64,000 nt of DNA from a virus, in the IMG/VR virus record IMGVR_UViG_3300027810_000002, positions 111,163-175,162 of that record; one strand, given 5' to 3'. The translations under genes were made by a program, and so were the position numbers. Below, one piece after another: positions 9,791 to 63,645 of this stretch; positions within the stretch are counted from its first letter, which is position 1, and each line of letters opens with the position of its first letter. Under the pieces are notes generated by a model. That model was given only the letters and a program-made list of their open reading frames with translations. It had not been told where the DNA came from and did no database searches.

Positions 9791-10249
9791 TTATAGGGCC
9801 TCTACCTCATCTGGCTGGTTCATAACGAATACTTTACTTGCCCATGTTTTACTATTAACTGCCTTATACTGATCCATATTATATAAGTTTGTATTGTACC
9901 ATAATTGGTTTATAGTTCCAACTTCTAAGGTTGCCATTATAGCTTCATCCATTACCAAGATCTTATTTCCTTTCTTTGCGAATACTGTAAAGTAATTATC
10001 AGATCCGAATGGCTTATACTCTACTGTGTGTAAGGCTCCTTTCTTATATGAACTTAATACTGTTCCTGGATTCTCATATAATCTTTGATCATCAAAATCT
10101 CTTGCGTCGTTACAGTTCATATAACCAGCTCTACATTTTGTGATAAATCTGAATTTACCTGGAACCTTCTTGTAATGATCATTGTTAATAATGTTTACTG
10201 TTTGGATCCCGGTGTGGTTGATGATGTTTTTGTTGTTTAATTCGTACAT
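9791..10249 (-). CDS. Early hypothetical protein (start moved to MYELNNK)
   Basis: The longer ORF-track start overlaps the promoter cassette at ~10263-10361. Confidence 0.7.
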   Translation of the reverse strand: MYELNNKNIINHTGIQTVNIINNDHYKKVPGKFRFITKCRAGYMNCNDARDFDDQRLYENPGTVLSSYKKGALHTVEYKPFGSDNYFTVFAKKGNKILVMDEAIMATLEVGTINQLWYNTNLYNMDQYKAVNSKTWASKVFVMNQPDEVEAL

Positions 10250-10262
10250 TTTTGTGGTGTTT

Positions 10263-10430
10263 AAGTTATTATTATATAGTAAATATAACACTTTTTATTG
10301 ACACCTGACAACTTTTATGCATTTATTTTCAAAAAAAGTCCTATTTATAATGATTATAAATTAGAAAGTTTTCACCTCAGATTTTTTTATATCAATTATT
10401 ATACTTATATTTACTATATAATAATTAAAA
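10263..10430. promoter_or_regulatory. Divergent early promoter pair sharing a central 9-1-9 palindrome
   Basis: ATTTATAATGATTATAAAT at 10343-10361; TATATTTA -7-like element on each side (10406-10413 on +). Confidence 0.75.
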
Positions 10431-10440
10431 CAACAACTAC

Positions 10441-10794
10441 ATGAATATCAAAATCACCGCAGCCGAAGAAAGAATCATCAAAGACGCACTCGCAGACTAT
10501 ACTAATAACTTAGTTGGTAAGGGAGTTAACTATAATACCGTTGTTGGTATCTTAAATAAGATCAACGATGCTGGTATTGTGAAGTCAGCGAGAACACCTA
10601 AGGTGCTGGTTAATAAGCAGTATATGTTTACATTCGAGAACGGCGGATGGAACACAGTGTGGGCTAAAACATTACCTGGTGCTAGACGAGCGGCCTTATT
10701 AGAGTATAAGGATAGTGATTTAAATGTTAGTATGGACAGCGTTCACCTAGCTACTAAGAAAGGATTAGATTCAGCAATGTCCTTATTCTACTAG
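10441..10794 (+). CDS. Early hypothetical protein
   Basis: 117 aa directly after promoter cassette. Confidence 0.75.
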   Translation: MNIKITAAEERIIKDALADYTNNLVGKGVNYNTVVGILNKINDAGIVKSARTPKVLVNKQYMFTFENGGWNTVWAKTLPGARRAALLEYKDSDLNVSMDSVHLATKKGLDSAMSLFY

Positions 10795-10803
10795 GGAACC
10801 CTT

Positions 10804-10890
10804 ATTTATAATCATTATAAATTAGAAAGTTTTCACCTCAGATTTTTTTATATCAATTAAAAGGTTTATATTTACTATATAATAATAACA
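10804..10890 (+). promoter_or_regulatory. Early promoter cassette with Fur-like palindrome
   Basis: ATTTATAATCATTATAAAT at 10804-10822, then TTTTTTTATATCAAT...TTATATTTACTATA. Confidence 0.75.
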
Positions 10891-10903
10891 ACAACTACTA
10901 ATT

Positions 10904-11116
10904 ATGACATCATTTAAAAACTTATCAATTTACATCCTATTAATCGCGGTCGGTATAGCTCTAGTAGCCTTTATCATACCTGCTCTTATTAAAGGTTTCT
11001 TTATTGGTCTATTATGGTTGATGAATAATCCTATTACGGGGATGATCATCTCATCTGCTTTTTTAGCTGGATGTTTTCTTGGTAGTGTTGAAACAAAATC
11101 TAATAAATCAGTATAA
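10904..11116 (+). CDS. Small two-TM membrane protein
   Basis: 70 aa, two hydrophobic segments. Confidence 0.7.
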   Translation: MTSFKNLSIYILLIAVGIALVAFIIPALIKGFFIGLLWLMNNPITGMIISSAFLAGCFLGSVETKSNKSV

Positions 11117-11136
11117 TAATAAATCAAACAAACATT

Positions 11137-12273
11137 ATGAGCATTCAAACTTTATCACAAACCGCAGTAGCAACAAGTAAACAAGAGAGCATCAACGCTC
11201 AATCTTTACGCCGCACCCTTCCTTTCAGAGACATTACGATGATCGACGAAACAACCATCGAGTATAAAGGAACTCGTATCCCACTTACCAAGCAAGCTTT
11301 TAAATCCTTACTATCCTTAGTAGGTATGAGTCAGTCATTCGCAGACAAATTCTCTAAGCTGTTTAACAAAGAGACTAAAGCGCAATTCATTAATACTATG
11401 AAAAACGCAATGGCATCTAATGCAGGTAAACTTAGCAACGTTACATTGGTATTAAATCCAATTTCGAAAGCTGTGATCTTATTTACTAAAGAAGACAAGC
11501 TGCAAATCTCAAACGATCAAATGATCCAAGTTGCAGAGAACATGATCTCAGATAGTTCAATGGGAGTTTCCCGATGGACTACGGATCCAACAACAGGTAT
11601 TATCACAATCGACGCTCATAACCCTAAGGCTGAGTTCGAGATCTTAGGATTAAGTGATGAGGTCTTTACAGGAGGAGTTACATTCCGTAACAGTCCACTA
11701 AAAGGATTCGAAGTTATGCCATACGTAAATCGTCAATGGTGTACTAACGGTCTAACAACAGCTATGGCACAAGAAGCATACCAACTACACTCTTTAGATA
11801 ATAAGAGTATGGAAAGCTTTTTCGAGAACATGCAAGATTTAAGACGTAACAACTACGCCCCTGAAGGATTTGCTGATCGAGTTCGTCAAGCTAACAACAC
11901 ACCTGCTTCACTACACGAAATGTCTTTTGCACATAACTTAATTGCAAAGCATGCTGGTGAAAGAGCAGAACAATGGGTACCTCTACAAGAGAACCTCAAC
12001 GAATATAATAAAGCCGGATTTGATAAATTAACTAACGATCAAATGAAGATGGCTAAAACTAACCAATCGCTTTGGTCAGTAATTAATGGAGTTACACACT
12101 TTAGTAGTCATGGTAAAGGTATCATCGACACTAACATGCAACCTCATAATGAAGCTGATATCCAAACACGTATTGGAAACCTATTAGGCAAAAAGAGTTT
12201 TGATCACGAAAACACAATGCCAAACCCTTTTAGTAAGGAACAGCTTCAACAGACTGGAGCTCTTCTTAACTAA
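11137..12273 (+). CDS. DUF932/TIGR03299-like phage protein
   Basis: FRNS...VNRQWCTNGL motif and C-terminal SLWSVINGVTH. Confidence 0.55.
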   Translation: MSIQTLSQTAVATSKQESINAQSLRRTLPFRDITMIDETTIEYKGTRIPLTKQAFKSLLSLVGMSQSFADKFSKLFNKETKAQFINTMKNAMASNAGKLSNVTLVLNPISKAVILFTKEDKLQISNDQMIQVAENMISDSSMGVSRWTTDPTTGIITIDAHNPKAEFEILGLSDEVFTGGVTFRNSPLKGFEVMPYVNRQWCTNGLTTAMAQEAYQLHSLDNKSMESFFENMQDLRRNNYAPEGFADRVRQANNTPASLHEMSFAHNLIAKHAGERAEQWVPLQENLNEYNKAGFDKLTNDQMKMAKTNQSLWSVINGVTHFSSHGKGIIDTNMQPHNEADIQTRIGNLLGKKSFDHENTMPNPFSKEQLQQTGALLN

Positions 12274-12302
12274 TGTTTAGTTTGATTTTTAATTATTATT
12301 AT

Positions 12303-12333
12303 AAAAGGCAGGCGTTGTTTCCTGCCTTTTTTT
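12303..12333 (+). terminator. Rho-independent terminator
   Basis: AAAAGGCAGG-cgttgttt-CCTGCCTTTTTTT. Confidence 0.8.
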
Positions 12334-12357
12334 ATGCACCTCAGCCAGGGGGCCCTT

Positions 12358-12445
12358 ATCTATAATCATTATAAATTACAAATCAGTTGTCCCAAAGTTT
12401 TTTTATATCAATAAAAAGTGTTATATTTAACTATAATTAAAAAAC
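12358..12445 (+). promoter_or_regulatory. Early promoter cassette with Fur-like palindrome
   Basis: ATCTATAATCATTATAAAT at 12358-12376; TTATATTTAACTATA. Confidence 0.7.
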
Positions 12446-12453
12446 AAACACAT

Positions 12454-12738
12454 ATGACTTATTCACAAATCGTTACAGCTATCAACAATGCTAATCTTTC
12501 AGTAGAAGAACTAAGTAAGCTTAACTCTTTCGTAGTTGACACTGTTAAATTAAAACGCAGAATGAATGGCGCAGTTATTAAGCAATCCCTATCTAAAGGT
12601 TCAGTAGTAATGGTAGATCATCCATCACATAAGAACTCTACATTCACGATCGATTCGGTTCGTAGAACTAAAGCAACCATCGTTGATAGTCAAGGTCGCA
12701 GAATGAATGCACCTCTATCAATGTTAATTCCAATGTAA
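12454..12738 (+). CDS. Early hypothetical protein (start moved to MTYSQ)
   Basis: ORF after promoter cassette. Confidence 0.7.
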   Translation: MTYSQIVTAINNANLSVEELSKLNSFVVDTVKLKRRMNGAVIKQSLSKGSVVMVDHPSHKNSTFTIDSVRRTKATIVDSQGRRMNAPLSMLIPM

Positions 12739-12739
12739 T

Positions 12740-12815
12740 TGTTAATAACTTTAGGGATATAATGTCCCTAAAGTTTTCCTATCCCATTAAAAAGGTTTAT
12801 ATTTACATATAACAT
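12740..12815 (+). promoter_or_regulatory. Early promoter cassette with DnaA-box-like 9-mer and hairpin
   Basis: TGTTAATAA at 12740-12748; AACTTTAGGGA/TCCCTAAAGTT inverted repeat; TTATATTTAC. Confidence 0.65.
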
Positions 12816-12828
12816 AATAACACCACAC

Positions 12829-13914
12829 ATGAAACATTACACTATTCAAAAAACCACAAACACATATACCCTAACTGAGGTAGAATCAGGTACAACACTA
12901 TCAATCGGATCAACACATCCTAAATTTGACTATGTCGCTAAAGAAGATTCTAAAGGATCAAGAATTGTTAATATCAATGGCGACAAGTTCACCTCATCTA
13001 AAGATTACAGAGGTCACTATAATAAGGCACCTAAGACTACTAAGCTAGCTCAGCCTCTTAATATTACCTTAACAAAATTAGATGATTTAAATATCAATCA
13101 AAACTTATTTATACCTATAGAGACTAAAACAGTCTTTGACAAATTCGCATCTACCGCCGGTGGTATTATGCCAGGTACAAACATCATGGCGGCCGGAGCC
13201 CCTGGTGTTGGTAAAACCACGGTCCTATTAGATCTATTAAGTACTGCACATGAGAGTGGTAAGAAGGTCCTATTCATCTCAGCTGAAATGTCTCAGATAG
13301 ATATGGCCCGCTACTTACAACGTTTTCCTCACTGGGGTCAGTTACCAATCTTATTCCTTGCAGACTATGTGGATGAATGTCCAAAGTCTGTAATCGAACA
13401 AGTATTAAGCACTGGCTGGGATATTGTCCTAACCGATTCATACACTGAAGTTAACGACACCGTAAAGGAAGCTTGTAACCTAACCCGTGGTAAAGTAGAA
13501 AAATGGTTCCTAGATCTTATGATCTCAAATAACAAAGGCGGTAACAAGCCTGGAATCTACACAACCTTTATAACAATCTTACAATTATCTAAAGGAGGTC
13601 AATTCGTCGGATCTAACAAACTAAAACACATGACCACTAGTATGATGAGCCTAGATTGGGAAGGTGGAGAAAACGCCGGTCGTAGATATATGGAATTCTC
13701 TAAAAACCGAGTAGGTGCAGTAAACAAGAAACTCTACTTCTCTATAGAGGGTGGAGTAAGTTTTGACGAAGCCAGATATGTACGAGATCTTTTTAACGAC
13801 GAGCTAGTATCTACGGAACGCAAGCAATTAGAAACAGAAGCGGATGCCTTCGACAAGTTATTCGGATTTAACGAGGCAGATGTAGAAGACTTAGAAGCTC
13901 ATATCGAAATATAA
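12829..13914 (+). CDS. RadA/Sms-like RecA-fold ATPase (no Zn finger or Lon-like domain)
   Basis: GGIMPG..GAPGVGKT, VLFISAE, IVLTDS, GSNKLKHM, SKNRVG. Confidence 0.75.
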   Translation: MKHYTIQKTTNTYTLTEVESGTTLSIGSTHPKFDYVAKEDSKGSRIVNINGDKFTSSKDYRGHYNKAPKTTKLAQPLNITLTKLDDLNINQNLFIPIETKTVFDKFASTAGGIMPGTNIMAAGAPGVGKTTVLLDLLSTAHESGKKVLFISAEMSQIDMARYLQRFPHWGQLPILFLADYVDECPKSVIEQVLSTGWDIVLTDSYTEVNDTVKEACNLTRGKVEKWFLDLMISNNKGGNKPGIYTTFITILQLSKGGQFVGSNKLKHMTTSMMSLDWEGGENAGRRYMEFSKNRVGAVNKKLYFSIEGGVSFDEARYVRDLFNDELVSTERKQLETEADAFDKLFGFNEADVEDLEAHIEI

Positions 13915-14460
13915 GGGTCCTAGGATCCTAAGCCTGCCCCCTGGTTATGTGGTGTTTCCTGGGGGTTTGGTGTATTCGGAGTACTGGGATGCAGTCATGG
14001 TAAAAAACGCTCCTCAGGTGTGAGTCAATTGGCGTTGGGGTTTAAGGTTCCTACAGGGACTTTACTTGGAGCTTTACTAGGGAGTACCCTTGGATTACTA
14101 GGAGGATCCTTACAGGCTTACCTATGTTTCTTATATCTCTATTAGGTTATTATAGGAGAGTATGAGTTCTTATACTTCTATTACTAGGATCCGTATTACC
14201 TGGATAGTTGTTTGCTTGGTCTTGCTTATCTCTTATATCTTTCTCTTGTTTCTTATTGTTCTTACTTAGATTCTTATTCTTATCTCTTCTTTGTTATCTA
14301 TTATGTATGATATCTTTGGTCACGTGCGTGGGTCCATTTTACAAGAATCTTTGCATGCTTGGGTGGTTTGTAGTGTGGTCGGTCAAACGGATTGATATTC
14401 TACAGGTATTTAGGATCGGGTTCTTAAGGAGTGAGCCTATATATACCTCTTCTTTTTGTA
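13915..14460. other. Second GC-rich/pyrimidine-skewed non-coding island
   Basis: GGATCC x3, CCTAGG, AGTACT; long C/T tract at ~14215-14300. Confidence 0.5.
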
Positions 14461-14465
14461 CCCTT

Positions 14466-14555
14466 ATTTGGAATCATTATAAATTAAGAAAGTTTATCAC
14501 CTAGGTTTTTTTATATCAATAATTAGTGTTATATTTACTATATAATAATTAAAAC
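14466..14555 (+). promoter_or_regulatory. Early promoter cassette with Fur-like palindrome
   Basis: ATTTGGAATCATTATAAAT at 14466-14484; TTATATTTACTATA. Confidence 0.7.
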
Positions 14556-14565
14556 AACTAACATT

Positions 14566-14943
14566 ATGCCGTACATTACCAAAGATCAAGTTACCCAAAA
14601 AAGAAAAGAATTGAAAGCTGCCTTACCTAACTACAAGTTATCTATTACTACTGAACATTATTCTGGTATTAAGGTTGCTATCATGTCTGGTCCTACTGAT
14701 CTTGGAACTGAATACTCTCAACTTAATCCAAACATGGATTATAGAGAGGAAACTTGGAACCGCTATACTGAAGAATACGATTCTAATCCTCCTATACAAG
14801 ATTTATTAGATATTATTATGCCTATATTAAATGAAGGCAAAGGAGCTTCACATGAAGATAGCGATTATGGATCTATTCCTGATTATTATACTTGGGTTCA
14901 TGTTGGTAAATGGGATAAAGCTTATGAAATTAAAACTAAATAA
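14566..14943 (+). CDS. LPD29-like protein
   Basis: RKELKAALPNYKLSI..HYSGIKVAIMSGP resembles the LPD29 signature. Confidence 0.5.
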   Translation: MPYITKDQVTQKRKELKAALPNYKLSITTEHYSGIKVAIMSGPTDLGTEYSQLNPNMDYREETWNRYTEEYDSNPPIQDLLDIIMPILNEGKGASHEDSDYGSIPDYYTWVHVGKWDKAYEIKTK

Positions 14944-14945
14944 TT

Positions 14946-15245
14946 ATGGAAAGAATAGAACAAATTAAAATAGTAAAAGGAATAGTAGAAGATTCATTTG
15001 ATGAGAATGCAATGTATACTGGAATAGACGATATGAATGAAGAAAATAAAGCACATATCATAAACATAGGAACTTCAATCTTATGTACTAAATGGCAAAT
15101 AGGATTTGAAGGAGGAGGCTTTGTACAATCAGTTGTTGATAATAATCTTATGAAAGCAGTTGGAAGCGCAGATGGAACATCACTTAGAGGTTTAAAATTC
15201 TTTGCATCTTTACTATACAATACAGTTAAACCAAACTTTGAATAA
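14946..15245 (+). CDS. Hypothetical protein
   Basis: 99 aa, GGGFVQSVVDNNLMKAVGSAD. Confidence 0.7.
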   Translation: MERIEQIKIVKGIVEDSFDENAMYTGIDDMNEENKAHIINIGTSILCTKWQIGFEGGGFVQSVVDNNLMKAVGSADGTSLRGLKFFASLLYNTVKPNFE

Positions 15246-15246
15246 T

Positions 15247-16311
15247 ATGAAAATTAAATTTATTGTAATCGCATTTTTTGTAGTAGCTACATGTAATGCA
15301 CAAAAAACTCTTGTATCTGATATCACGGATGCGGATCTAAGTAATACAGAACAATCTGGATTTGTAAATTGGGATTTCACCAATAATACAACCGGATATG
15401 CCTGGACATGGGGAGCTCCTGGCATGTTAGTTTATGGAGATACTCCTGAAATGTGTTATGATATAGAAGCTGAAATTAAAAATGTATCTCACGTATGGGG
15501 AGCTGGCATCTCTATTGGAGTAAATGAATCCTCATCAGATAGTGAACTAAAGTATAATGGTATTAATAACTATTATTTGTCAGTTGAAGATAATGCGGTT
15601 GGATTATTTAAAGGAACTAATAATACACAAGAAGATTTCATAGCCGATACGCTTGTATATGTAGGTGTCGAAATTGATCAAACAGAATGGCATAAACTAA
15701 GATTAAAAATAGAAGCAGATACTATATATGGATACGTTAACGATGTCTTATACATTAGCCATAAAGTAGATAATATACAAAAGAATGGTAAGTTTGCTAT
15801 AGTATCTTCTAATAGTGAAAATACATATAAGAATATAAAAGCAAGATATCATAAAGATCCTTACTATATTAGTAGTGATACTATTGTAGAATTTGTAAGT
15901 GATGTTAATCATCCAGAATGGAATAACTTACCTGTCACTCGATTAGATGATGTTGAAACTGTAGTAGAAGCCGATGGATTAGATCATTTTATAAGCCACT
16001 ATATACAATATAAAGAATCCGAATCAATTGATATACCCGATGATGTTGTTGATTGTAATTGTATTTGCCCAGAAGTAACTACTTTATCGATATATCCAAA
16101 TCCAGTATCTGAATATGTTAACGTAAGTATACAACAACCCGAAGGAACATTAAAGATTTATAGCATGCATGGCGCAATCGCTAGATCATACGACTTAACG
16201 TATGGAATTAATAGAATAGATATGACAAGATATCCAATAGGACATTATTTATTCAAAGTAGAATACGAAGGAAGAAAAGCATTAATAGAAAAGATAATAG
16301 TAACTCATTAA
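15247..16311 (+). CDS. Secreted protein with lectin-like (DUF1080-type) beta domain and T9SS type A C-terminal sorting domain
   Basis: Signal peptide MKIKFIVIAFFVVATCNA-Q; WHKLRLKIEADTIYGYVND; CTD LSIYPNP..IYSMHG..IDM..YPIGHYLFKV..EKIIV. Confidence 0.85.
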   Translation: MKIKFIVIAFFVVATCNAQKTLVSDITDADLSNTEQSGFVNWDFTNNTTGYAWTWGAPGMLVYGDTPEMCYDIEAEIKNVSHVWGAGISIGVNESSSDSELKYNGINNYYLSVEDNAVGLFKGTNNTQEDFIADTLVYVGVEIDQTEWHKLRLKIEADTIYGYVNDVLYISHKVDNIQKNGKFAIVSSNSENTYKNIKARYHKDPYYISSDTIVEFVSDVNHPEWNNLPVTRLDDVETVVEADGLDHFISHYIQYKESESIDIPDDVVDCNCICPEVTTLSIYPNPVSEYVNVSIQQPEGTLKIYSMHGAIARSYDLTYGINRIDMTRYPIGHYLFKVEYEGRKALIEKIIVTH

Positions 16312-16317
16312 CATTTT

Positions 16318-16911
16318 ATGATAATATATGTTGCACCCCCTCGAGGGATTCAAGAAAAACAAGATTGCTTTAATTGGCTAACGCACTACGGCCATGAAGT
16401 CGTTTGGTTAGATTTAAGACGTAAAGTCAAAGGCCCTCTACTCCTATGTGGAGGCGCTGATATCGGTAAAGACCAAGAACGTGATGATCGAGAAGATATT
16501 TGGATTAAACAAACCCTTGCTGATGGATATCCTATTATTGGTCTTTGTCGAGGCATGCAAGTTTTAAACTCTTATTTTGGAGGTGTTGTTGAAGATCTTA
16601 GTGATCTCATAGTAGAAGATCATAAAGCTGCTGATTTTTCAGAAAATACTGATCACAGTGGAAAACCTTCACAATTTCACACAGTAGAAGATTTAGATGG
16701 TAAATTAATAAATGTTAATTCTCGACACCATCAACATTGTTCAGTAATAGCAGACAATTTCAAAGCCACACATCTTTCATATCCTTTATATTCCGTAGTA
16801 GAGGGGTTTGAAGATGTTGATCAAAGGATTTGGGCTGTACAGTGGCATCCTGAAAAAATGGAATCAGAAGATAATGAATATCCTTTAAATAAACTAATTA
16901 ATTTAAGATAA
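16318..16911 (+). CDS. Peptidase C26 / class I glutamine amidotransferase (PuuD-like)
   Basis: CGGADI, GLCRGMQ, VNSRHHQ, VQWHPE. Confidence 0.9.
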   Translation: MIIYVAPPRGIQEKQDCFNWLTHYGHEVVWLDLRRKVKGPLLLCGGADIGKDQERDDREDIWIKQTLADGYPIIGLCRGMQVLNSYFGGVVEDLSDLIVEDHKAADFSENTDHSGKPSQFHTVEDLDGKLINVNSRHHQHCSVIADNFKATHLSYPLYSVVEGFEDVDQRIWAVQWHPEKMESEDNEYPLNKLINLR

Positions 16912-17165
16912 TGGACCAAAACATGATACTAAGATCTGGCAAATATCAAGGATATACTGTCAGAGAAGCTTATAGAAAAGATCCTTCGTATATTAGATGG
17001 GTTATTGAAAATATACCAGCAATGTTAAAGAACCACGGTCCTAGGAGAAAAACCAAAGCCGTAGAATCTCGGAAACCATTTGAGTATAAGCAACCACCTG
17101 ATGTTGAAAAGACTATAGAAAATGGTTGGATTCCACCTGGTAACGTGGAAGATGCATTTTTTTAA
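16911..17165 (+). CDS. ExoX C-terminal-like (DUF3820-type) small protein
   Basis: SGKYQGYTV....DPSYIRW. Confidence 0.55.
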   Translation: MDQNMILRSGKYQGYTVREAYRKDPSYIRWVIENIPAMLKNHGPRRKTKAVESRKPFEYKQPPDVEKTIENGWIPPGNVEDAFF

Positions 17166-17230
17166 AAATAAATGCACAAAAGTTTTTTTATCCCAATAAA
17201 AAGTGTTATATTTAACTATAATTAAAAAAC
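17165..17230 (+). promoter_or_regulatory. Early promoter cassette without upstream box
   Basis: AAAGTTTTTTTATCCCAATAAAAAGTGTTATATTTAACTATA. Confidence 0.65.
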
Positions 17231-17238
17231 AATAAATT

Positions 17239-17526
17239 ATGAAAACAAAAAAACTAGTTTGGGAATTAGAATCTTCTATCTACTTATTAGATGAAATCGT
17301 TCAAAAATATAAGTCAGTTGACTTTGGAATACTAAAAGGTAGTATTGCTGCCTATATAGGAGTTACTAAAGGATCTGTTAATATGGCTATAGGAAATATG
17401 AAGTATATTTTATCTGATGGTGGTGAAGGTCTTTCTGCCTATACAACTCGACAGGAGGAAGCTGTTAAGCTTACTTTAGAGAAATATGATTTGAGTGCGA
17501 AAAAACTATTAATGATCCTATCTTAG
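17239..17526 (+). CDS. Early hypothetical protein
   Basis: 95 aa after cassette. Confidence 0.7.
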   Translation: MKTKKLVWELESSIYLLDEIVQKYKSVDFGILKGSIAAYIGVTKGSVNMAIGNMKYILSDGGEGLSAYTTRQEEAVKLTLEKYDLSAKKLLMILS

Positions 17527-17528
17527 AT

Positions 17529-17608
17529 TGTTAATAACTTTGTGAAAATAACTTAACAAAAGTTTTCGTATATCAATAAAAAGAGTTATATTTAACTATA
17601 ATTAAAAA
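17529..17608 (+). promoter_or_regulatory. Early promoter cassette with DnaA-box-like 9-mer
   Basis: TGTTAATAA at 17529-17537; TTATATTTAACTATA. Confidence 0.65.
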
Positions 17609-17617
17609 CAAACAGAT

Positions 17618-17941
17618 ATGAACAAATTAGAAACATTAGGACTGACCAACGTAACTTCAAAAACTCAAAAAAAGAATGGTACTGAATGTTATTATGATCC
17701 AATCGCTGATTGTGATTACTTAAGCTATCGAAGTGGATATGTTCGTAGAGCATATACTAAAGCTACTCACTATTCTTCTAGACTACACCGAACTATTTAT
17801 CAATTGAATCCTCAGAGAAAAGCAAGAAGATTCTGGAATGAAACGGAATATGAAGTTACTGAAAGAATATTAATCCATAATCCTGGATATAGAATTCACT
17901 TATTAACAAGAGCTGTTGTAAATTATAGAAATAAAAAATAA
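17618..17941 (+). CDS. Early hypothetical protein
   Basis: 107 aa, basic. Confidence 0.7.
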   Translation: MNKLETLGLTNVTSKTQKKNGTECYYDPIADCDYLSYRSGYVRRAYTKATHYSSRLHRTIYQLNPQRKARRFWNETEYEVTERILIHNPGYRIHLLTRAVVNYRNKK

Positions 17942-17952
17942 TAAACTTTAAT

Positions 17953-18039
17953 ATGATAATTGAATGGATTATAGTAGGTTCTATTCTAGTAGCATGGAAT
18001 GCCTTTCTAATTATTAAAATGCGTAAACAAGATAAATAG
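17953..18039 (+). CDS. Single-TM microprotein MIIEWIIVGSILVAWNAFLIIKMRKQDK
   Basis: Fills the gap before glnS; hydrophobic core with basic tail. Confidence 0.5.
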   Translation: MIIEWIIVGSILVAWNAFLIIKMRKQDK

Positions 18040-18043
18040 ATTA

Positions 18044-19573
18044 ATGAATTTTATAGAAGAAATAATCGAGAGTGGAGATACTTCTAAGCTGATGTTTAGA
18101 TTTCCACCTGAACCAAACGGACACTTACATTTAGGACATGCCAAAGCGATTTGTCTTAATTTTGATCTAGCACATAAATATAAAACCGGATGTAATCTTA
18201 GATTTGATGATACAAATCCTATTGCAGAAAATTCTATATTTGTAGATTCTATAATAGAAGATATTGCTTGGTTAGGTTATCGACCTACTGAAGTCGAAGA
18301 AACTAGTAACTATTTCAAACTTATACAAAGATGTGCTACTCAATTAATTATAGAGGGTAATGCGTATATGGATGATTCAACCTCTGAAGAGATAGCTGAA
18401 TTAAAAGGAGATCTTGAAAATCCAGGAACTGATTCACCATATCGGAGCAGAACTATCGCAGATAATCTTGAAGAGTTTAGGAAACTATGTGAAGGCAGTG
18501 TTAAAACGGTTCTTAGAGCTAAAATAGATATGGCAGATCCTAATTTATTAATGAGAGATCCTGTTATCTATAGATCTATTGATGCTCCTCATCATAACAC
18601 AGGTACTGAATTTAAAGCGTATCCTATGTATGATTTTGCACATCCAATTTCAGATTGGAAAGAAGATATCACACATTCACTATGTACTTTAGAATTTGAA
18701 GCACATCGACCTTTTTATAATTGGACTCTTGATAAATTATTTGATACTAGTGTTTTTGGTCCTAATCCTCGTCAAATTGAGTTTTCAAGATTAAACGTCG
18801 AAGGAATGATATTGAGTAAGCGGTATCTGAAGAAAATGGTAGAAGATGGAATAGTTGATGGATGGGACGATCCTAGAATGCCAACATTGAAAGGATTGAA
18901 GCGTCGTGGATTTACTCCAGATTCTATTAGAAACTTTTGTGAAAAGGTTGGGATCTCTAAGAGAGAGTCTCAAATTGAGCGATCTTTATTAGATGGATGT
19001 TTACGTGATGATTTAAATAAGATCGCAGAACGTCGCATGGTAGTTAAAGATCCAATTAAACTAACAATTGTTGGTGATTTTAAACCAGGGTTTGCTGCTC
19101 TTGAAAATAATCCAGAATCATCTGTAATATCAGCTCGTCGAGTAAATTACACTGATCAGTTTTGGATTGAGAGAGAAGACTTTAGACCTACTGCAAATAG
19201 GAAGTATAAGAGACTTAAGCTAGGTACTAATGTTCGCTTAAAAGGTGTCTGTATAGTCAAGGCGATCGATTATACTGAAATTGATGGAGTTATCACTGAA
19301 GTATTTTGTGAACATTATCCAGATAGTTTTTCAGGTATGGAAACAGAAATTAAAGCTAAAGGGGTTATTCACTGGGTAGATAGACAGTCATGTATTTCAT
19401 TAAATTTAAATCATTTTGATGATATGAATAAATCTACAAATGTATCATTCGGTGAACCTTTATTGAGACTAGAATACGAAAAACCAGTACAATTTATTCG
19501 ACATGGTTACTATATGAAAGATGGAGACAGCTGGAACCATTCAGTTTCTTTAAAAAGTAGTTATAAGGGGTGA
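18044..19573 (+). CDS. glnS: Glutaminyl-tRNA synthetase
   Basis: RFPPEPNGHLHLGHAK, LRFDDTNP, YPMYDFAH, HSLCTLEF, ILSKR, GWDDPRMPTL, KGVIHWV. Confidence 0.93.
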   Translation: MNFIEEIIESGDTSKLMFRFPPEPNGHLHLGHAKAICLNFDLAHKYKTGCNLRFDDTNPIAENSIFVDSIIEDIAWLGYRPTEVEETSNYFKLIQRCATQLIIEGNAYMDDSTSEEIAELKGDLENPGTDSPYRSRTIADNLEEFRKLCEGSVKTVLRAKIDMADPNLLMRDPVIYRSIDAPHHNTGTEFKAYPMYDFAHPISDWKEDITHSLCTLEFEAHRPFYNWTLDKLFDTSVFGPNPRQIEFSRLNVEGMILSKRYLKKMVEDGIVDGWDDPRMPTLKGLKRRGFTPDSIRNFCEKVGISKRESQIERSLLDGCLRDDLNKIAERRMVVKDPIKLTIVGDFKPGFAALENNPESSVISARRVNYTDQFWIEREDFRPTANRKYKRLKLGTNVRLKGVCIVKAIDYTEIDGVITEVFCEHYPDSFSGMETEIKAKGVIHWVDRQSCISLNLNHFDDMNKSTNVSFGEPLLRLEYEKPVQFIRHGYYMKDGDSWNHSVSLKSSYKG

Positions 19574-19607
19574 TTCTGTAGATATATAAAGAAAACAGAT
19601 CAAAACC

Positions 19608-19691
19608 ATGATGATATTTTGCATTGTATTCCTAGCAGTTAGTTTTGTAATTGGCGTTCATATGCTAACAGAACATAGAAACCGCAAGTAA
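19608..19691 (+). CDS. Single-TM microprotein MMIFCIVFLAVSFVIGVHMLTEHRNRK
   Basis: Short hydrophobic ORF preceded by GATATATA motif. Confidence 0.45.
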   Translation: MMIFCIVFLAVSFVIGVHMLTEHRNRK

Positions 19692-19692
19692 T

Positions 19693-19772
19693 TGTTAATA
19701 ACTTTTTTAAAATAAGTGAGCTAGTATTTTTCTAGTTCACTTTTTTTGCTTATATTTATACTATAATTAAAA
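19693..19772 (+). promoter_or_regulatory. Early promoter cassette with DnaA-box-like 9-mer
   Basis: TGTTAATAA at 19693-19701; TTATATTTATACTATA. Confidence 0.6.
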
Positions 19773-19782
19773 GATAATCAAT

Positions 19783-20214
19783 ATGGCAATACCTAAAATT
19801 TACAAGTACGGAATCGAAATCACAAAGCCTTGGTCTTCCGAGATGTATGATTTTAATCAAAACATCAAAGAATATTACCAAGATCAAATCAATGATCTGA
19901 TAAACTCTCTCAAAGAAACGGAAGCTTGTAATTTTATCGCTGGGATAGTAAATCCATATAAATATGGAATGGGAACTTCTGATGATATTGAGTATATGAA
20001 ATCAGATATGCTTAAGAACATCGAGAACGCCGAAAGCCATTGGATGAAAGAGGTTATTGAAGAACTTTTGATCTTACAAAGAATTTACCCTATGATTTGC
20101 GAAGCTACTCCAGAAATGCCAGCAATTTCTCTATATGATTTAGGAATTCCAATGAATATTATTGGATTTGAAACACGCGATGAGATCTTACTTTTGCGCG
20201 AAAGATATTCTTAA
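19783..20214 (+). CDS. Early hypothetical protein
   Basis: 143 aa. Confidence 0.7.
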   Translation: MAIPKIYKYGIEITKPWSSEMYDFNQNIKEYYQDQINDLINSLKETEACNFIAGIVNPYKYGMGTSDDIEYMKSDMLKNIENAESHWMKEVIEELLILQRIYPMICEATPEMPAISLYDLGIPMNIIGFETRDEILLLRERYS

Positions 20215-20228
20215 AAGCATTAATCCTT

Positions 20229-20325
20229 ATTTATAATCATTATAAATAGGACTTTTTGTGAAAATAAATGTACAAAAGTTTTCATATATCAATAAAAAGT
20301 GTTATATTTAATTATAATTAAAAAA
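20229..20325 (+). promoter_or_regulatory. Early promoter cassette with Fur-like palindrome
   Basis: ATTTATAATCATTATAAAT at 20229-20247; TTATATTTAATTATA. Confidence 0.75.
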
Positions 20326-20333
20326 CAAACAAT

Positions 20334-20714
20334 ATGTCAATAAACAAAGTCTTAATTCACACACAGTACGAAGAAAATTACGGATTCCATGAAGGTAACT
20401 TTCATTGGAAGAAGAAAGGCGGTCATACATTTCAGATCGAGATGGATGCAGATCTTATGTTTTACTCTAATCCTGCTGAAGTTTTTAGTAAGATGCTAGA
20501 GAAGCACAACTCAGATCTTGAAAGATTTACATACGTTGATCATGATATTCAGTTTCATTCACCTACTGTTCTTGGTAATCAAGACGAGTATATTGAGGCT
20601 AATCAATCAATAATAGATCACGAAGATATTCAAGATTTTGAAGAAGTTAATCACGTTATCGCTGGCGTTGATTTCTCAGAAAGTATTAACCAATTAAATA
20701 ACCTTAAAATATAA
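20334..20714 (+). CDS. Early hypothetical protein
   Basis: 126 aa, TQYEENYG...HWKKKGG motif. Confidence 0.7.
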   Translation: MSINKVLIHTQYEENYGFHEGNFHWKKKGGHTFQIEMDADLMFYSNPAEVFSKMLEKHNSDLERFTYVDHDIQFHSPTVLGNQDEYIEANQSIIDHEDIQDFEEVNHVIAGVDFSESINQLNNLKI

Positions 20715-59696: not shown

Positions 59697-60068
59697 CTAA
59701 CATAGTTCAAATCTCTTAGCTACCCAACCATATTTTTCAATATGATCTTCATAGAAATCATCATCACCATACATATAGAATGCATCGGCTTGATCTAACC
59801 AACGTAATGCGGTTTTTTTACAACTAGCCCCAACAGACATTACATTCTTAATGGCCTTCTGCGCCCATTCTCTCTCATCAGCCTCCTGCTTTTCAGCAAC
59901 CTCAGAAAGGTCATTGATAAAATCAGTTAACTCCTGGAAGTTCCAGGTATGGAAGTTATAACCTCTCGGTCTGAAACCATTAACATCTTTAAAAAGATCT
60001 GAGACCCACATAAGAGCTTCATCGAATTGAACTTGAGTGGTAATTGAAAATGTATTTGAATTTGACAT
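59697..60068 (-). CDS. Early hypothetical phage protein
   Basis: SDLFKDVNGFRPR motif; early cassette upstream. Confidence 0.7.
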   Translation of the reverse strand: MSNSNTFSITTQVQFDEALMWVSDLFKDVNGFRPRGYNFHTWNFQELTDFINDLSEVAEKQEADEREWAQKAIKNVMSVGASCKKTALRWLDQADAFYMYGDDDFYEDHIEKYGWVAKRFELC

Positions 60069-60087: not shown

Positions 60088-60187
60088 AATTATAGTTAAA
60101 TATAACACTTTTTATTGATATAAAAAAACTTTTATGCATTTATTTTCACAGAAAGTCCTATTTATAATGATTCCAAATAAGGGATCT
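60088..60187 (-). promoter_or_regulatory. Early promoter cassette with Fur-like palindrome (direct repeat copy 1)
   Basis: ATTTATAATGATTCCAAAT at 60160-60178; ~94/100 identical to 63546-63645. Confidence 0.8.
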
Positions 60188-60792
60188 TACTTATTTTGTT
60201 TTGGCTTAATAATATGAAACCATGATTGATCCTCAAATAGCTTAATATCTTCTTTATCGAAAGATTCAAAAACAGCATCAATTACTCCAGGATGCCATGA
60301 CGCAAAGTCATGTCCGGCGATAATTCCACCTTCTTTAATTTTAGGTAAGAATAATTCAATATCTTTTTTTACCGAATCATATGAATGATCTCCATCTATA
60401 TAAACCAGATGTTGAGAATTATCTTCAATTGTATCTACCACATTATAAGAATAATCCTTAAGTAGTGTTATATTGTCAAAATACCTTGTATTGATTTTGA
60501 ATTCTTTTTCAACAGTTTTCCAATCATATTTAAACATTTCACTAAACTCTTCATATCCATCTAATGGGTCGATTGCTATAATGTGATTAAATCCTTGACT
60601 ACTTGCGAATATTTGAGTAGATTCTCCCATATAAGATCCTATTTCTATCATTCTAATTTCTTCTTCTGGGAATTTCTGGTGTAATATCTCTCCTGCTTCA
60701 TACACTAGTGCGAATAGTCCTGCAAGTGATTTATTTGTTGCCATATTAGGATCTTTCCAGTCTGGGTTCGGATTAAATCTTTGTGTAATCAT
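60187..60792 (-). CDS. Class I SAM-dependent methyltransferase (Methyltransf_24-like)
   Basis: IEIGSYMGES, AIDP, VYIDGDHSY, GGIIAGHD. Confidence 0.9.
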   Translation of the reverse strand: MITQRFNPNPDWKDPNMATNKSLAGLFALVYEAGEILHQKFPEEEIRMIEIGSYMGESTQIFASSQGFNHIIAIDPLDGYEEFSEMFKYDWKTVEKEFKINTRYFDNITLLKDYSYNVVDTIEDNSQHLVYIDGDHSYDSVKKDIELFLPKIKEGGIIAGHDFASWHPGVIDAVFESFDKEDIKLFEDQSWFHIIKPKQNK

Positions 60793-60804
60793 TGTTTGTT
60801 ATAT

Positions 60805-61521
60805 TTAGACTCTATTTCTATCGCACCAATTGTCTGGTGATGATGCTACGTTATTGTTACTTGATTCTATATATTCCCAAGCCAAACTAAACCTAGTACG
60901 GTCTGAGGTATTTGGATAACAACCATGTATCATATTAATATTAAAAAACACAGCATATGGCGCGTCTAATTCTAAGTCTAGTATCAAATTAGAATTTAAT
61001 TTTGTTTCATCAATCCATCGTATCCCTTCGATGTGTGATGCGATATCATGTGGTAATATTCCTATTTTATGAGATTCTGGGATTATCCGTAAACACCCAT
61101 TTTCTTTATTTGTATTTTGAAAGTATAAAGCACAGCTGACAATAGTATTAGGGTCACCATTAAAATAGAAATTATCTTGATGTATCATTGTCGATATTCC
61201 TACTTTGGGTTTCATTGGAAAGAATTTAGATATGTAAACATCTAATGGTTCTACTGTATCTATTATTTGTTTAGCCGTATTTACTAAAGTTTTATTTTTT
61301 GCTATTTTTAAAAACTCAGGTTCAAAATCACAAGCACCTTCTATTTTGTTTAGATTAGTTGGGCTATTTAATCTATAATTTCCTTCGTGTTCCGTTAAAT
61401 TAAGAGAGTATTCGTAATGTTTTTGAGATGTTTTTAATAAAGTGTCTAATTCATCCTTAGATAAAAAATCTTTTATTATTACATATCCCAAATCATTGAA
61501 TTTATTTATGTCAAAGTTCAT
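60805..61521 (-). CDS. PhyH-family Fe(II)/2OG dioxygenase
   Basis: GYVIIKDFL, HQD, ENGCLRIIPESH, HGCYPNTSDRTR. Confidence 0.9.
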   Translation of the reverse strand: MNFDINKFNDLGYVIIKDFLSKDELDTLLKTSQKHYEYSLNLTEHEGNYRLNSPTNLNKIEGACDFEPEFLKIAKNKTLVNTAKQIIDTVEPLDVYISKFFPMKPKVGISTMIHQDNFYFNGDPNTIVSCALYFQNTNKENGCLRIIPESHKIGILPHDIASHIEGIRWIDETKLNSNLILDLELDAPYAVFFNINMIHGCYPNTSDRTRFSLAWEYIESSNNNVASSPDNWCDRNRV

Positions 61522-63312: not shown

Positions 63313-63450
63313 TGTGGACTTGTTATTATTAAATATTATACCTCGATTTTTAATTAAGTTTCATAGACATGAGGTTTATTATCTATGAGTACTATACTAA
63401 TATAAGTCTTTTATTTGATATAAAAAAACTTTTATGCATTTATTTTTAAT

Positions 63451-63531
63451 TTAATTGTCGAAAGCATGAGCGATCAGTAGGATGAATAAAATGAATAGCA
63501 TTAAGATTGCGAGGTCTGTAAATAGAGCCAT
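63451..63531 (-). CDS. Single-TM microprotein MALFTDLAILMLFILFILLIAHAFDN
   Basis: Lies directly downstream of the 63546-63645 promoter cassette. Confidence 0.55.
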   Translation of the reverse strand: MALFTDLAILMLFILFILLIAHAFDN

Positions 63532-63545
63532 TGTATTTGTTTTTT

Positions 63546-63645
63546 AATTATAGTTAAATATAACACTTTATATTGATATAAAAAAACTTCTGTACATTTA
63601 TTTTCACTGGAAGTCCTATTTATAATGATTCCAAATAAGGGATCT
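63546..63645 (-). promoter_or_regulatory. Early promoter cassette with Fur-like palindrome (direct repeat copy 2)
   Basis: ATTTATAATGATTCCAAAT at 63618-63636. Confidence 0.8.

Follow-up and report, generated by a model that had tools for sequence, protein, structure and literature searches.

We describe here a repeated promoter element in a 64,000-nucleotide stretch of phage DNA (the window), which is positions 111,163 to 175,162, the final 64 kb, of the 175-kb IMG/VR record IMGVR_UViG_3300027810_000002. The completeness of this phage record is estimated at 66%. The source is a large marine phage of Bacteroidota, and the host is taken to be of this phylum because the genes of the window include collagen-like tail fibres, a type IX secretion sorting-domain protein, a glutaminyl-tRNA-synthetase-like gene and a DNA ligase. 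The element in question is a 19-bp inverted repeat with the form of a Fur box, which recurs at a fixed place in a series of near-identical promoter cassettes. What binds this box, and what does it do for the phage?

A preliminary description of the window, made from its letters alone, had placed seven such 19-mers at positions 10343, 10804, 12358, 14466, 20229, 60160 and 63618, and all of them are present. Three, at 10343, 10804 and 20229, are perfect 9-1-9 palindromes, as had been said. The degenerate 19-mer written down at that time has six exact matches in the window (10343, 10804, 14466, 20229, 60160 and 63618), and the box at 12358 is one base off; in 100 dinucleotide-preserving shuffles of the window there are 0 matches. 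The sites have the architecture of a Fur box, that is, a 19-bp A+T-rich inverted repeat of 9-1-9 form, with a 7-1-7 core and the centre AAT-N-ATT. When the window was scanned with the published Fur-box consensus of Riemerella, allowing up to 3 mismatches, precisely these seven sites were returned and nothing more, against a chance expectation of 0.43. The whole record holds nine boxes, two of them outside the window, and they serve ten promoter cassettes. All seven boxes of the window have one common orientation relative to the downstream gene. They are as follows.

10343..10361, no strand assigned, Fur-type box 1, perfect palindrome common to two divergent cassettes
10804..10822, plus strand, Fur-type box 2, perfect palindrome
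12358..12376, plus strand, Fur-type box 3, one base off, with a G+C-rich hairpin and T-run before it at about 12305-12333
14466..14484, plus strand, Fur-type box 4, GG variant of the distal half-site
20229..20247, plus strand, Fur-type box 5, perfect palindrome
60160..60178, minus strand, Fur-type box 6, GG variant read on the minus strand
63618..63636, minus strand, Fur-type box 7, GG variant read on the minus strand

Aligned by the downstream gene, the seven sites have about 130 bp in common. The order of parts in this cassette is a short C/T-rich prefix, the 19-mer, a spacer, a T-run with a conserved stretch closing in TATATTTA, a conserved leader and the ATG, which comes 23-30 nt past the TATATTTA element. 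This element resembles a -7 box, being one base from the Bacteroidota -7 consensus TAnnTTTG. The spacer between box and T-run has two lengths, 20-21 or 31 nt, which are 10 bp apart. From the end of the box to the -7 element the distance is 44/45 nt in four cassettes and 55 nt in another four, so that the earlier statement of roughly 45-65 bp was right. The palindrome at 10343 serves both strands, with a gap of 44 nt in its plus-strand cassette and of 55 nt in its minus-strand one. Altogether there are eight box-linked promoters in the window and ten in the record, near-identical to each other. Their core promoters, from the T-run to TATATTTA, are listed below with the gap and the first gene; these genes are small, with no family match or with an LPD29 domain only.

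10382..10413, plus strand, core promoter of cassette 1, gap 44; gene 10441-10794, 117 amino acids, no family
10280..10311, minus strand, core promoter of the divergent cassette 1', gap 55 from box 1; gene 9791-10249, 152 amino acids, no family
10843..10874, plus strand, core promoter of cassette 2, gap 44; gene 10904-11116, 70 amino acids
12398..12429, plus strand, core promoter of cassette 3, gap 45; gene 12454-12738, 94 amino acids
14506..14537, plus strand, core promoter of cassette 4, gap 45; gene 14566-14943, LPD29 domain
20279..20310, plus strand, core promoter of cassette 5, long spacer variant, gap 55; gene 20334-20714, 126 amino acids
60097..60128, minus strand, core promoter of cassette 6, gap 55; gene 59697-60068, 123 amino acids
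63555..63586, minus strand, core promoter of cassette 7, gap 55; then a 26-codon hydrophobic open reading frame (ORF), 63451-63531

Cassette 3 opens a new transcription unit, as judged from the G+C-rich hairpin with T-run that precedes it. We also considered a promoter for a virion RNA polymerase of the crAss or N4 type. This was prompted by two giant ORFs of about 2000 amino acids each and was rejected, since both are collagen-like tail fibre proteins by their PHROGs and the cassette elements are of the host type, -33/-7.

Is the box peculiar to this phage? IMG/VR was queried with a 22-mer made of a three-base prefix and the box, with five two-fold degenerate positions, and with the same pattern reversed as the control. 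The 22-mer was found in at least 117 other contigs and the reversed control in 0. In nearly all viral matches the order is a terminator or gene end, then the box, the -7 box and the ATG, and the orientation of the box is always the same. In the commonest viral form the distal half-site is of AG type and the proximal one of TAT type. Among the matches listed, the viral contexts were clustered on the 120 nt downstream of the box, which gave 70 clusters. A strict TAnnTTTG lies 34-35, 44-46, 55-56 or 66 nt downstream of the box in 26 of these 70 and in 0 in the opposite direction, and the gap peaks at 34-35, 44-46 and 55-56 nt. A second viral scan, with T at position 6 of the distal half-site, returned 62 stretches, of which 36 new contexts have their peaks at 45-46 and 55-57 nt. 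In other long phage records there are 2-8 boxes per record and no control matches. In 67 non-redundant viral contexts, the gene that comes first after the box encodes mostly 50-100 amino acids, with no PHROG in common.

A megablast search with the 11.5-kb early block found no near relative among cultured phages, and blastn of the cassette gave weak matches only, to the jumbo phages MA9V-1/2 of Chryseobacterium and pT24 of Tenacibaculum, where the boxes are degenerate. The nearest cultured system found is Chryseobacterium phage MA9V-2, in which a similar cassette (OR513085.1 35100-35240; L339:1490-1615) has a box with 2 mismatches 56 nt before the TATATTTA element. Two cassettes from other viral contigs had no matches in cultured phages.

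The same box is found in bacterial chromosomes. The exact AG/TAT 22-mer occurs in at least 120 bacterial contigs, mostly of Flavobacteriales, Sphingobacteriales, Cytophagales and Bacteroidales. Among the matches listed, 71 genes starting no more than 250 nt downstream of it were examined. As many as 39 of the 71 encode a multihaem cytochrome c of about 430 amino acids, of the kind that heads the operon for alternative complex III (ACIII). Others are NqrA (7), MetK (3) and, one each, KatG, HemA, NuoA, imelysin and a (thiol-)disulfide isomerase; at the single katG gene the box is 9 nt from the ATG. The gap between the bacterial box and the -7 box is 45-47 nt in 31 contexts and 53-58 nt in another 31, which are the two values of the phage. 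The phage 19-mer at 10343 is identical to the site upstream of a Chryseobacterium class I fumarase gene.

For the scan of Flavobacteriia genomes that had been proposed as a check, and which was run in essence, 151 Flavobacteriaceae genomes were searched with at most 1 mismatch. About 402 sites were found against 50 control matches (about 8-fold enrichment), with at least one site in 144 genomes. With up to 2 mismatches the 19-mer is 3-7 times commoner than its reversed control in genomes of Lutibacter, Chryseobacterium, Ekhidna, Sphingobacterium and Bacteroides. The best sites were then taken from seven genomes and their flanking genes annotated, with the loci L264, L270, L273, L285, L293, L296, L318, L319, L328 and L331 compared with L266, L267, L274, L282, L300, L311, L317 and L320. 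They lie at genes of iron acquisition, as had been expected, and iron-using respiratory and haem genes adjoin them as well. Proximal boxes, 3-45 nt from the start codon, precede sufA, sufB, sufS (twice) and feoB, and also genes for TonB-dependent siderophore receptors, an iron ABC binding protein and an enterochelin-esterase-like protein. Distal boxes, 45, 46, 55 or 56 nt before the -7 box, precede hemA, the ACIII cytochrome c gene actA (three genomes), nqrA (three genomes), nuoA, sdhC and the class I Fe-S fumarase gene. From such site positions and gene contents, the Bacteroidota regulon looks like a dual-mode Fur regulon, with a proximal box at genes of iron acquisition and a phased distal box at genes of iron use. 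The phage cassettes have the distal, phased layout only.

What is known about such boxes is in accordance with this picture. Purified Fur of Riemerella shifts promoter fragments that carry a 19-mer of 9-1-9 form (PMC5609570), which bears out the statement in the preliminary description that flavobacterial Fur boxes are similar, and mutation of the Riemerella box derepresses rhuH (PMC11967795). In Elizabethkingia the ACIII cluster is 4-8.6-fold higher under iron-rich conditions (PMC7221216). Caulobacter crescentus offers a close precedent for two modes, where mutation and reporter assays established that sdhC, nuoA and acnA are under direct activation by Fur, with boxes upstream of -35, and that feoAB and TonB receptor genes are under its repression, with boxes that overlap the promoter (PMC2724300). 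Direct activation by Fur from upstream boxes is also recorded for norB, pan1 and nuoA of Neisseria meningitidis (reviewed in PMC3788343).

These observations lead us to a reading that we consider rather probable: a host Fur-family protein binds the box and activates the early-type promoters of the phage when iron is sufficient. The 19-mer would be a site for the main Fur-family metalloregulator of the host, the protein named Fur in Riemerella, and the box would act as the upstream module of a cassette transcribed by the host RNA polymerase. With the -7 box taken as centred at -7, the centre of the Fur-type box would fall at about -65/-66 or -76, which are one helical turn apart, and in other phages also at about -55 and -87. 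Most likely, a metal-loaded Fur dimer would then bind upstream of the polymerase, on a single face of the helix, and stimulate transcription, as at activator sites of the class I type. By this means the phage would copy the promoter logic of host respiratory genes, and full expression of its early-type genes would be reached only in an iron-sufficient host.

The positions of the sites are those of an upstream, class-I-like element. They lie upstream of -33 on one face of the helix, in steps of about 10-11 bp, at 34/35, 44-46, 55-56 and 66 nt in phages. That they take several positions one helical turn apart in a fixed orientation suggests a protein that faces the polymerase, unlike a decoy or a fixed UP element. 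Since the box is upstream of -33 and phased as in the host layout at genes raised by iron, activation is likelier than repression or titration. Support comes also from the rise of ACIII in iron-rich medium (PMC7221216) and the dual mode of Caulobacter Fur (PMC2724300), both of which fit. Further support comes from two complete chromosomes, of a Flavobacteriaceae bacterium and a Vicingaceae bacterium, which have one detectable Fur-family gene each and carry both classes of sites.

There are also points that weigh against this reading. Fur binding at the phage sites, activation over repression and the early timing of the genes are all things that we infer. The phage -7 box has a terminal A where the consensus has G. 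The box is absent, at up to 2 mismatches, from five cultured Flavobacteriia phages (phi38:1, phi14:2, 11b, RAP44 and P2559S; 303 kb in total), and for this reason it is a lineage-specific feature, one that is more than A+T-rich background. The distal sites of the host also have their own flavour. All 13 of 13 have a C or G centre and at least one TAT-type half-site, and a C/G centre is found in 4 of 15 proximal sites, where both counts include orthologues and are not independent. There may thus be a second binder or another mode of binding. In most Bacteroidota there are 2-4 Fur-family genes, and the conserved Fur-family protein of the phylum scores alike on the NCBIfam models for Fur and PerR, all below the cut-offs. 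As far as the evidence from these sequences goes, the regulator appears assignable to the level of the Fur family, with peroxide sensing included as a possibility. Finally, a fur deletion mutant of Riemerella keeps the iron response of fumarase, sdh, nuoG and an ACIII subunit, and in iron-rich medium these genes show no significant change between mutant and wild type; only under iron restriction are they 1.1-2.2 log2 units lower in the mutant (PMC5609570 Table 2). Such data fit a positive role of Fur only in part and weaken a simple activation model.

Could a different host factor then read the distal type of box? It might be a second, PerR-like paralogue of Fur, sensing iron and peroxide, or else an unrelated regulator of respiration. 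The Riemerella mutant, in which sdh, fumarase and ACIII still respond to iron (PMC5609570), and the systematic differences between distal and proximal sites would be explained in this way. Also in its favour, Elizabethkingia respiratory genes are cited as falling after treatment with H2O2 (in PMC7221216). There are sites beyond Bacteroidota to be considered as well. In the Streptococcus parasanguinis group (about 20 further loci beside L128:5358-6091) the exact 22-mer directly adjoins the beginning of a divergent gene of the VIT1 family, for iron/manganese export, and it lies upstream of spx in Mammaliicoccus lentus; judged by the genes beside them, these Firmicutes sites look like targets of the Fur/PerR family. 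The 15-bp core of the perfect phage palindromes is the same as the 7-1-7 PerR box of Bacillus subtilis, and one katG gene has its box next to the ATG. The present sites differ from that system in clade, and their regulon is mostly iron acquisition and iron-using respiration, with one katG only. Against a separate factor, the same half-site, including its flanking bases, is used in both classes, hybrid boxes are found at sufB and siderophore receptors, and both classes occur in the two genomes with a single detectable Fur-family gene. We regard a different factor as unlikely.

Another explanation keeps the same host Fur-family protein and lets the sites repress or act as decoys. In the first version Fur would bind upstream, perhaps spread along the A+T-rich spacer, and damp the promoters at high iron. 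Fur is best known as a repressor and can oligomerise from its box (review PMC3788343). However, host genes of the repressed type have the box at or just before the start codon, not 45-55 nt before the -7 box, and those with the distal layout go up with iron (PMC7221216). The phage boxes stop 44-55 nt before the -7 box, beyond the -33 region, so they do not overlap the promoter as a classical operator does. In the second version the ten sites carried by every replicating genome would sequester Fur and derepress iron uptake by the host, for the benefit of the iron enzymes of the phage. Several phage records have 4-8 boxes each, and a PhyH-type enzyme that depends on iron and 2-oxoglutarate (Fe/2OG) is encoded in the window. 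A pure decoy would need none of the features seen here, namely the tie of each site to a promoter, the phased distance and the single orientation. We think repression or titration improbable. The preliminary description had proposed that host Fur or PerR tunes early phage genes or that the sites titrate Fur; its host Fur-family box at early-type promoters is thus retained, and titration and operator repression become the less likely parts.

A DNA-binding protein of the phage itself, possibly encoded in the missing third of the genome, might also switch the early genes through the palindrome. The estimated completeness of the record and its many ORFs without a family leave space for such a protein, and palindromic operators are common for phage repressors. 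Yet the identical 22-mer stands before conserved chromosomal genes throughout the phylum, it recurs in phage contigs of about 70 unrelated clusters, and a Pfam FUR search of the 175-kb record found no Fur-family gene. The presence of the 22-mer in both viral and bacterial contigs, more than a hundred of each, speaks for a host factor that is conserved and against a protein private to the phage, and we consider the latter very improbable. Weaker still, and scarcely credible, is the explanation that nothing specific binds and that an A+T-rich palindrome upstream of the -33 region strengthens the promoter as an UP-like or bent-DNA element, because UP elements keep one fixed place and the box is found at four positions in steps of one helical turn, has an inverted repeat conserved to the base and occupies the repressor position at iron-uptake genes too.

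How does the proposed activation by Fur compare with known systems? In a class I CRP-dependent promoter of E. coli, the dimer site is upstream of the polymerase and is active at several positions, which differ by a helical turn. Here both the protein family and the type of promoter are different, and a contact with the alpha subunit is an analogy only. Caulobacter and Neisseria are nearer, for there, as in Bacteroidota genomes, iron-using respiratory genes have the box upstream of -35/-33, whereas feoAB and TonB receptor genes have it overlapping the promoter, and the phage shares the upstream layout of the activated genes. In contrast to those systems, the present sites are closer, with their centres at about -55 to -87, and keep strictly to steps of one helical turn, a phasing not reported there; the promoters are of the Bacteroidota -33/-7 type and belong to a phage of lytic type. 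The Fur box of Riemerella anatipestifer (PMC5609570, PMC11967795) has the same length and architecture. The phage boxes are 2-3 positions off its consensus, and in the variant most often found in other phage contigs one half-site matches it exactly. Unlike the phage boxes, which are distal, those described in Riemerella are repressor sites within 100 bp of start codons, at genes for iron and haem uptake; the phage boxes differ also in their C or G centre and their TAT- or GG-type half-sites. In Shiga-toxin prophages the stx1 promoter is iron-regulated and Fur-repressed, according to work cited in PMC3788343. It is likewise a host Fur site in a phage genome that couples a phage-borne gene to iron, but as a single repressor site for one cargo gene in a temperate coliphage, whereas here there are ten cassettes with early-type genes and activator geometry in Bacteroidota phages.

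In the literature that we searched there was no paper on Fur boxes in Bacteroidota phages, none on direct activation by Fur or phased Fur activation sites in Bacteroidota, and no description of the proximal/distal rule on the host side; a paper on haem uptake in F. psychrophilum does not mention a Fur box. Thus the regulator, the type of site and, in a few bacteria, upstream activation by Fur are known, and what is new is the setting and the geometry.

If these elements are put together, a wider scenario can be drawn, in which a broad guild of Bacteroidota phages uses iron-loaded host Fur as the activator of its first genes, infection passes an iron checkpoint and a dual-mode rule holds for hosts across the phylum. 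We hold this joint scenario tentatively, at somewhat less than an even chance. Such a guild would comprise at least about 70 sequence clusters of public viromes and would include marine jumbo phages that have as many as ten cassettes; its members would copy the phased upstream layout of host respiratory-gene promoters. With an iron checkpoint, early expression would be low and infection would stall in iron-starved cells, which are common in the sea. Under the host rule, a proximal box would repress iron uptake and a phased distal box with a C/G centre would activate iron use, generally in the phylum. Over large parts of the ocean, iron is what limits the growth of bacteria, and among the main consumers of the carbon from algal blooms are the Flavobacteriia. 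If the scenario is true for many phages, iron supply would set phage killing as well as the growth rate of the host, and models of carbon flow and viral lysis would be affected. We would also have here a clear example of a lytic phage that has borrowed from its host the site of an activator, not of a repressor, and does not rely on a factor of its own. The host-side pattern provides a testable Fur rule in a phylum with poorly known regulation, and the cassette is short, modular and suitable for reporters.

Several minor observations concern the surroundings of the cassettes. Behind the plus-strand cassettes, the genes at 15202-16311, 16318-16911 and 18044-19573 have among their products a protein with a type IX secretion C-terminal sorting domain, and in the same block (15202-19573) there are a class I glutamine amidotransferase of the peptidase C26 type and a full-length tRNA synthetase of the GlnRS/GluRS type. 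On the minus strand, just upstream of box 6, the stretch 60187-61521 encodes a PhyH-family Fe/2OG dioxygenase and a Methyltransf_24 methyltransferase. The former (60805-61521) is the one confirmed of the two Fe/2OG enzymes that had been claimed for the window. Box 6 (60160) drives the next gene (59697-60068), not these two. The ORF behind cassette 7 (63451-63531, minus strand) is very hydrophobic, and a second copy of the core promoter, without a box, lies at about 63397-63428. In the whole record about 7 more promoters have the same core without the box. Three such box-less core promoters, at 12730-12805, 17520-17595 and 19685-19760 on the plus strand, have another upstream element in common in the place of the box, about 15 nt long and built around the core TTAATAAC. 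It looks as if the upstream module had been exchanged here as a unit, and the TTAATAAC-core element is perhaps the site of a second factor.

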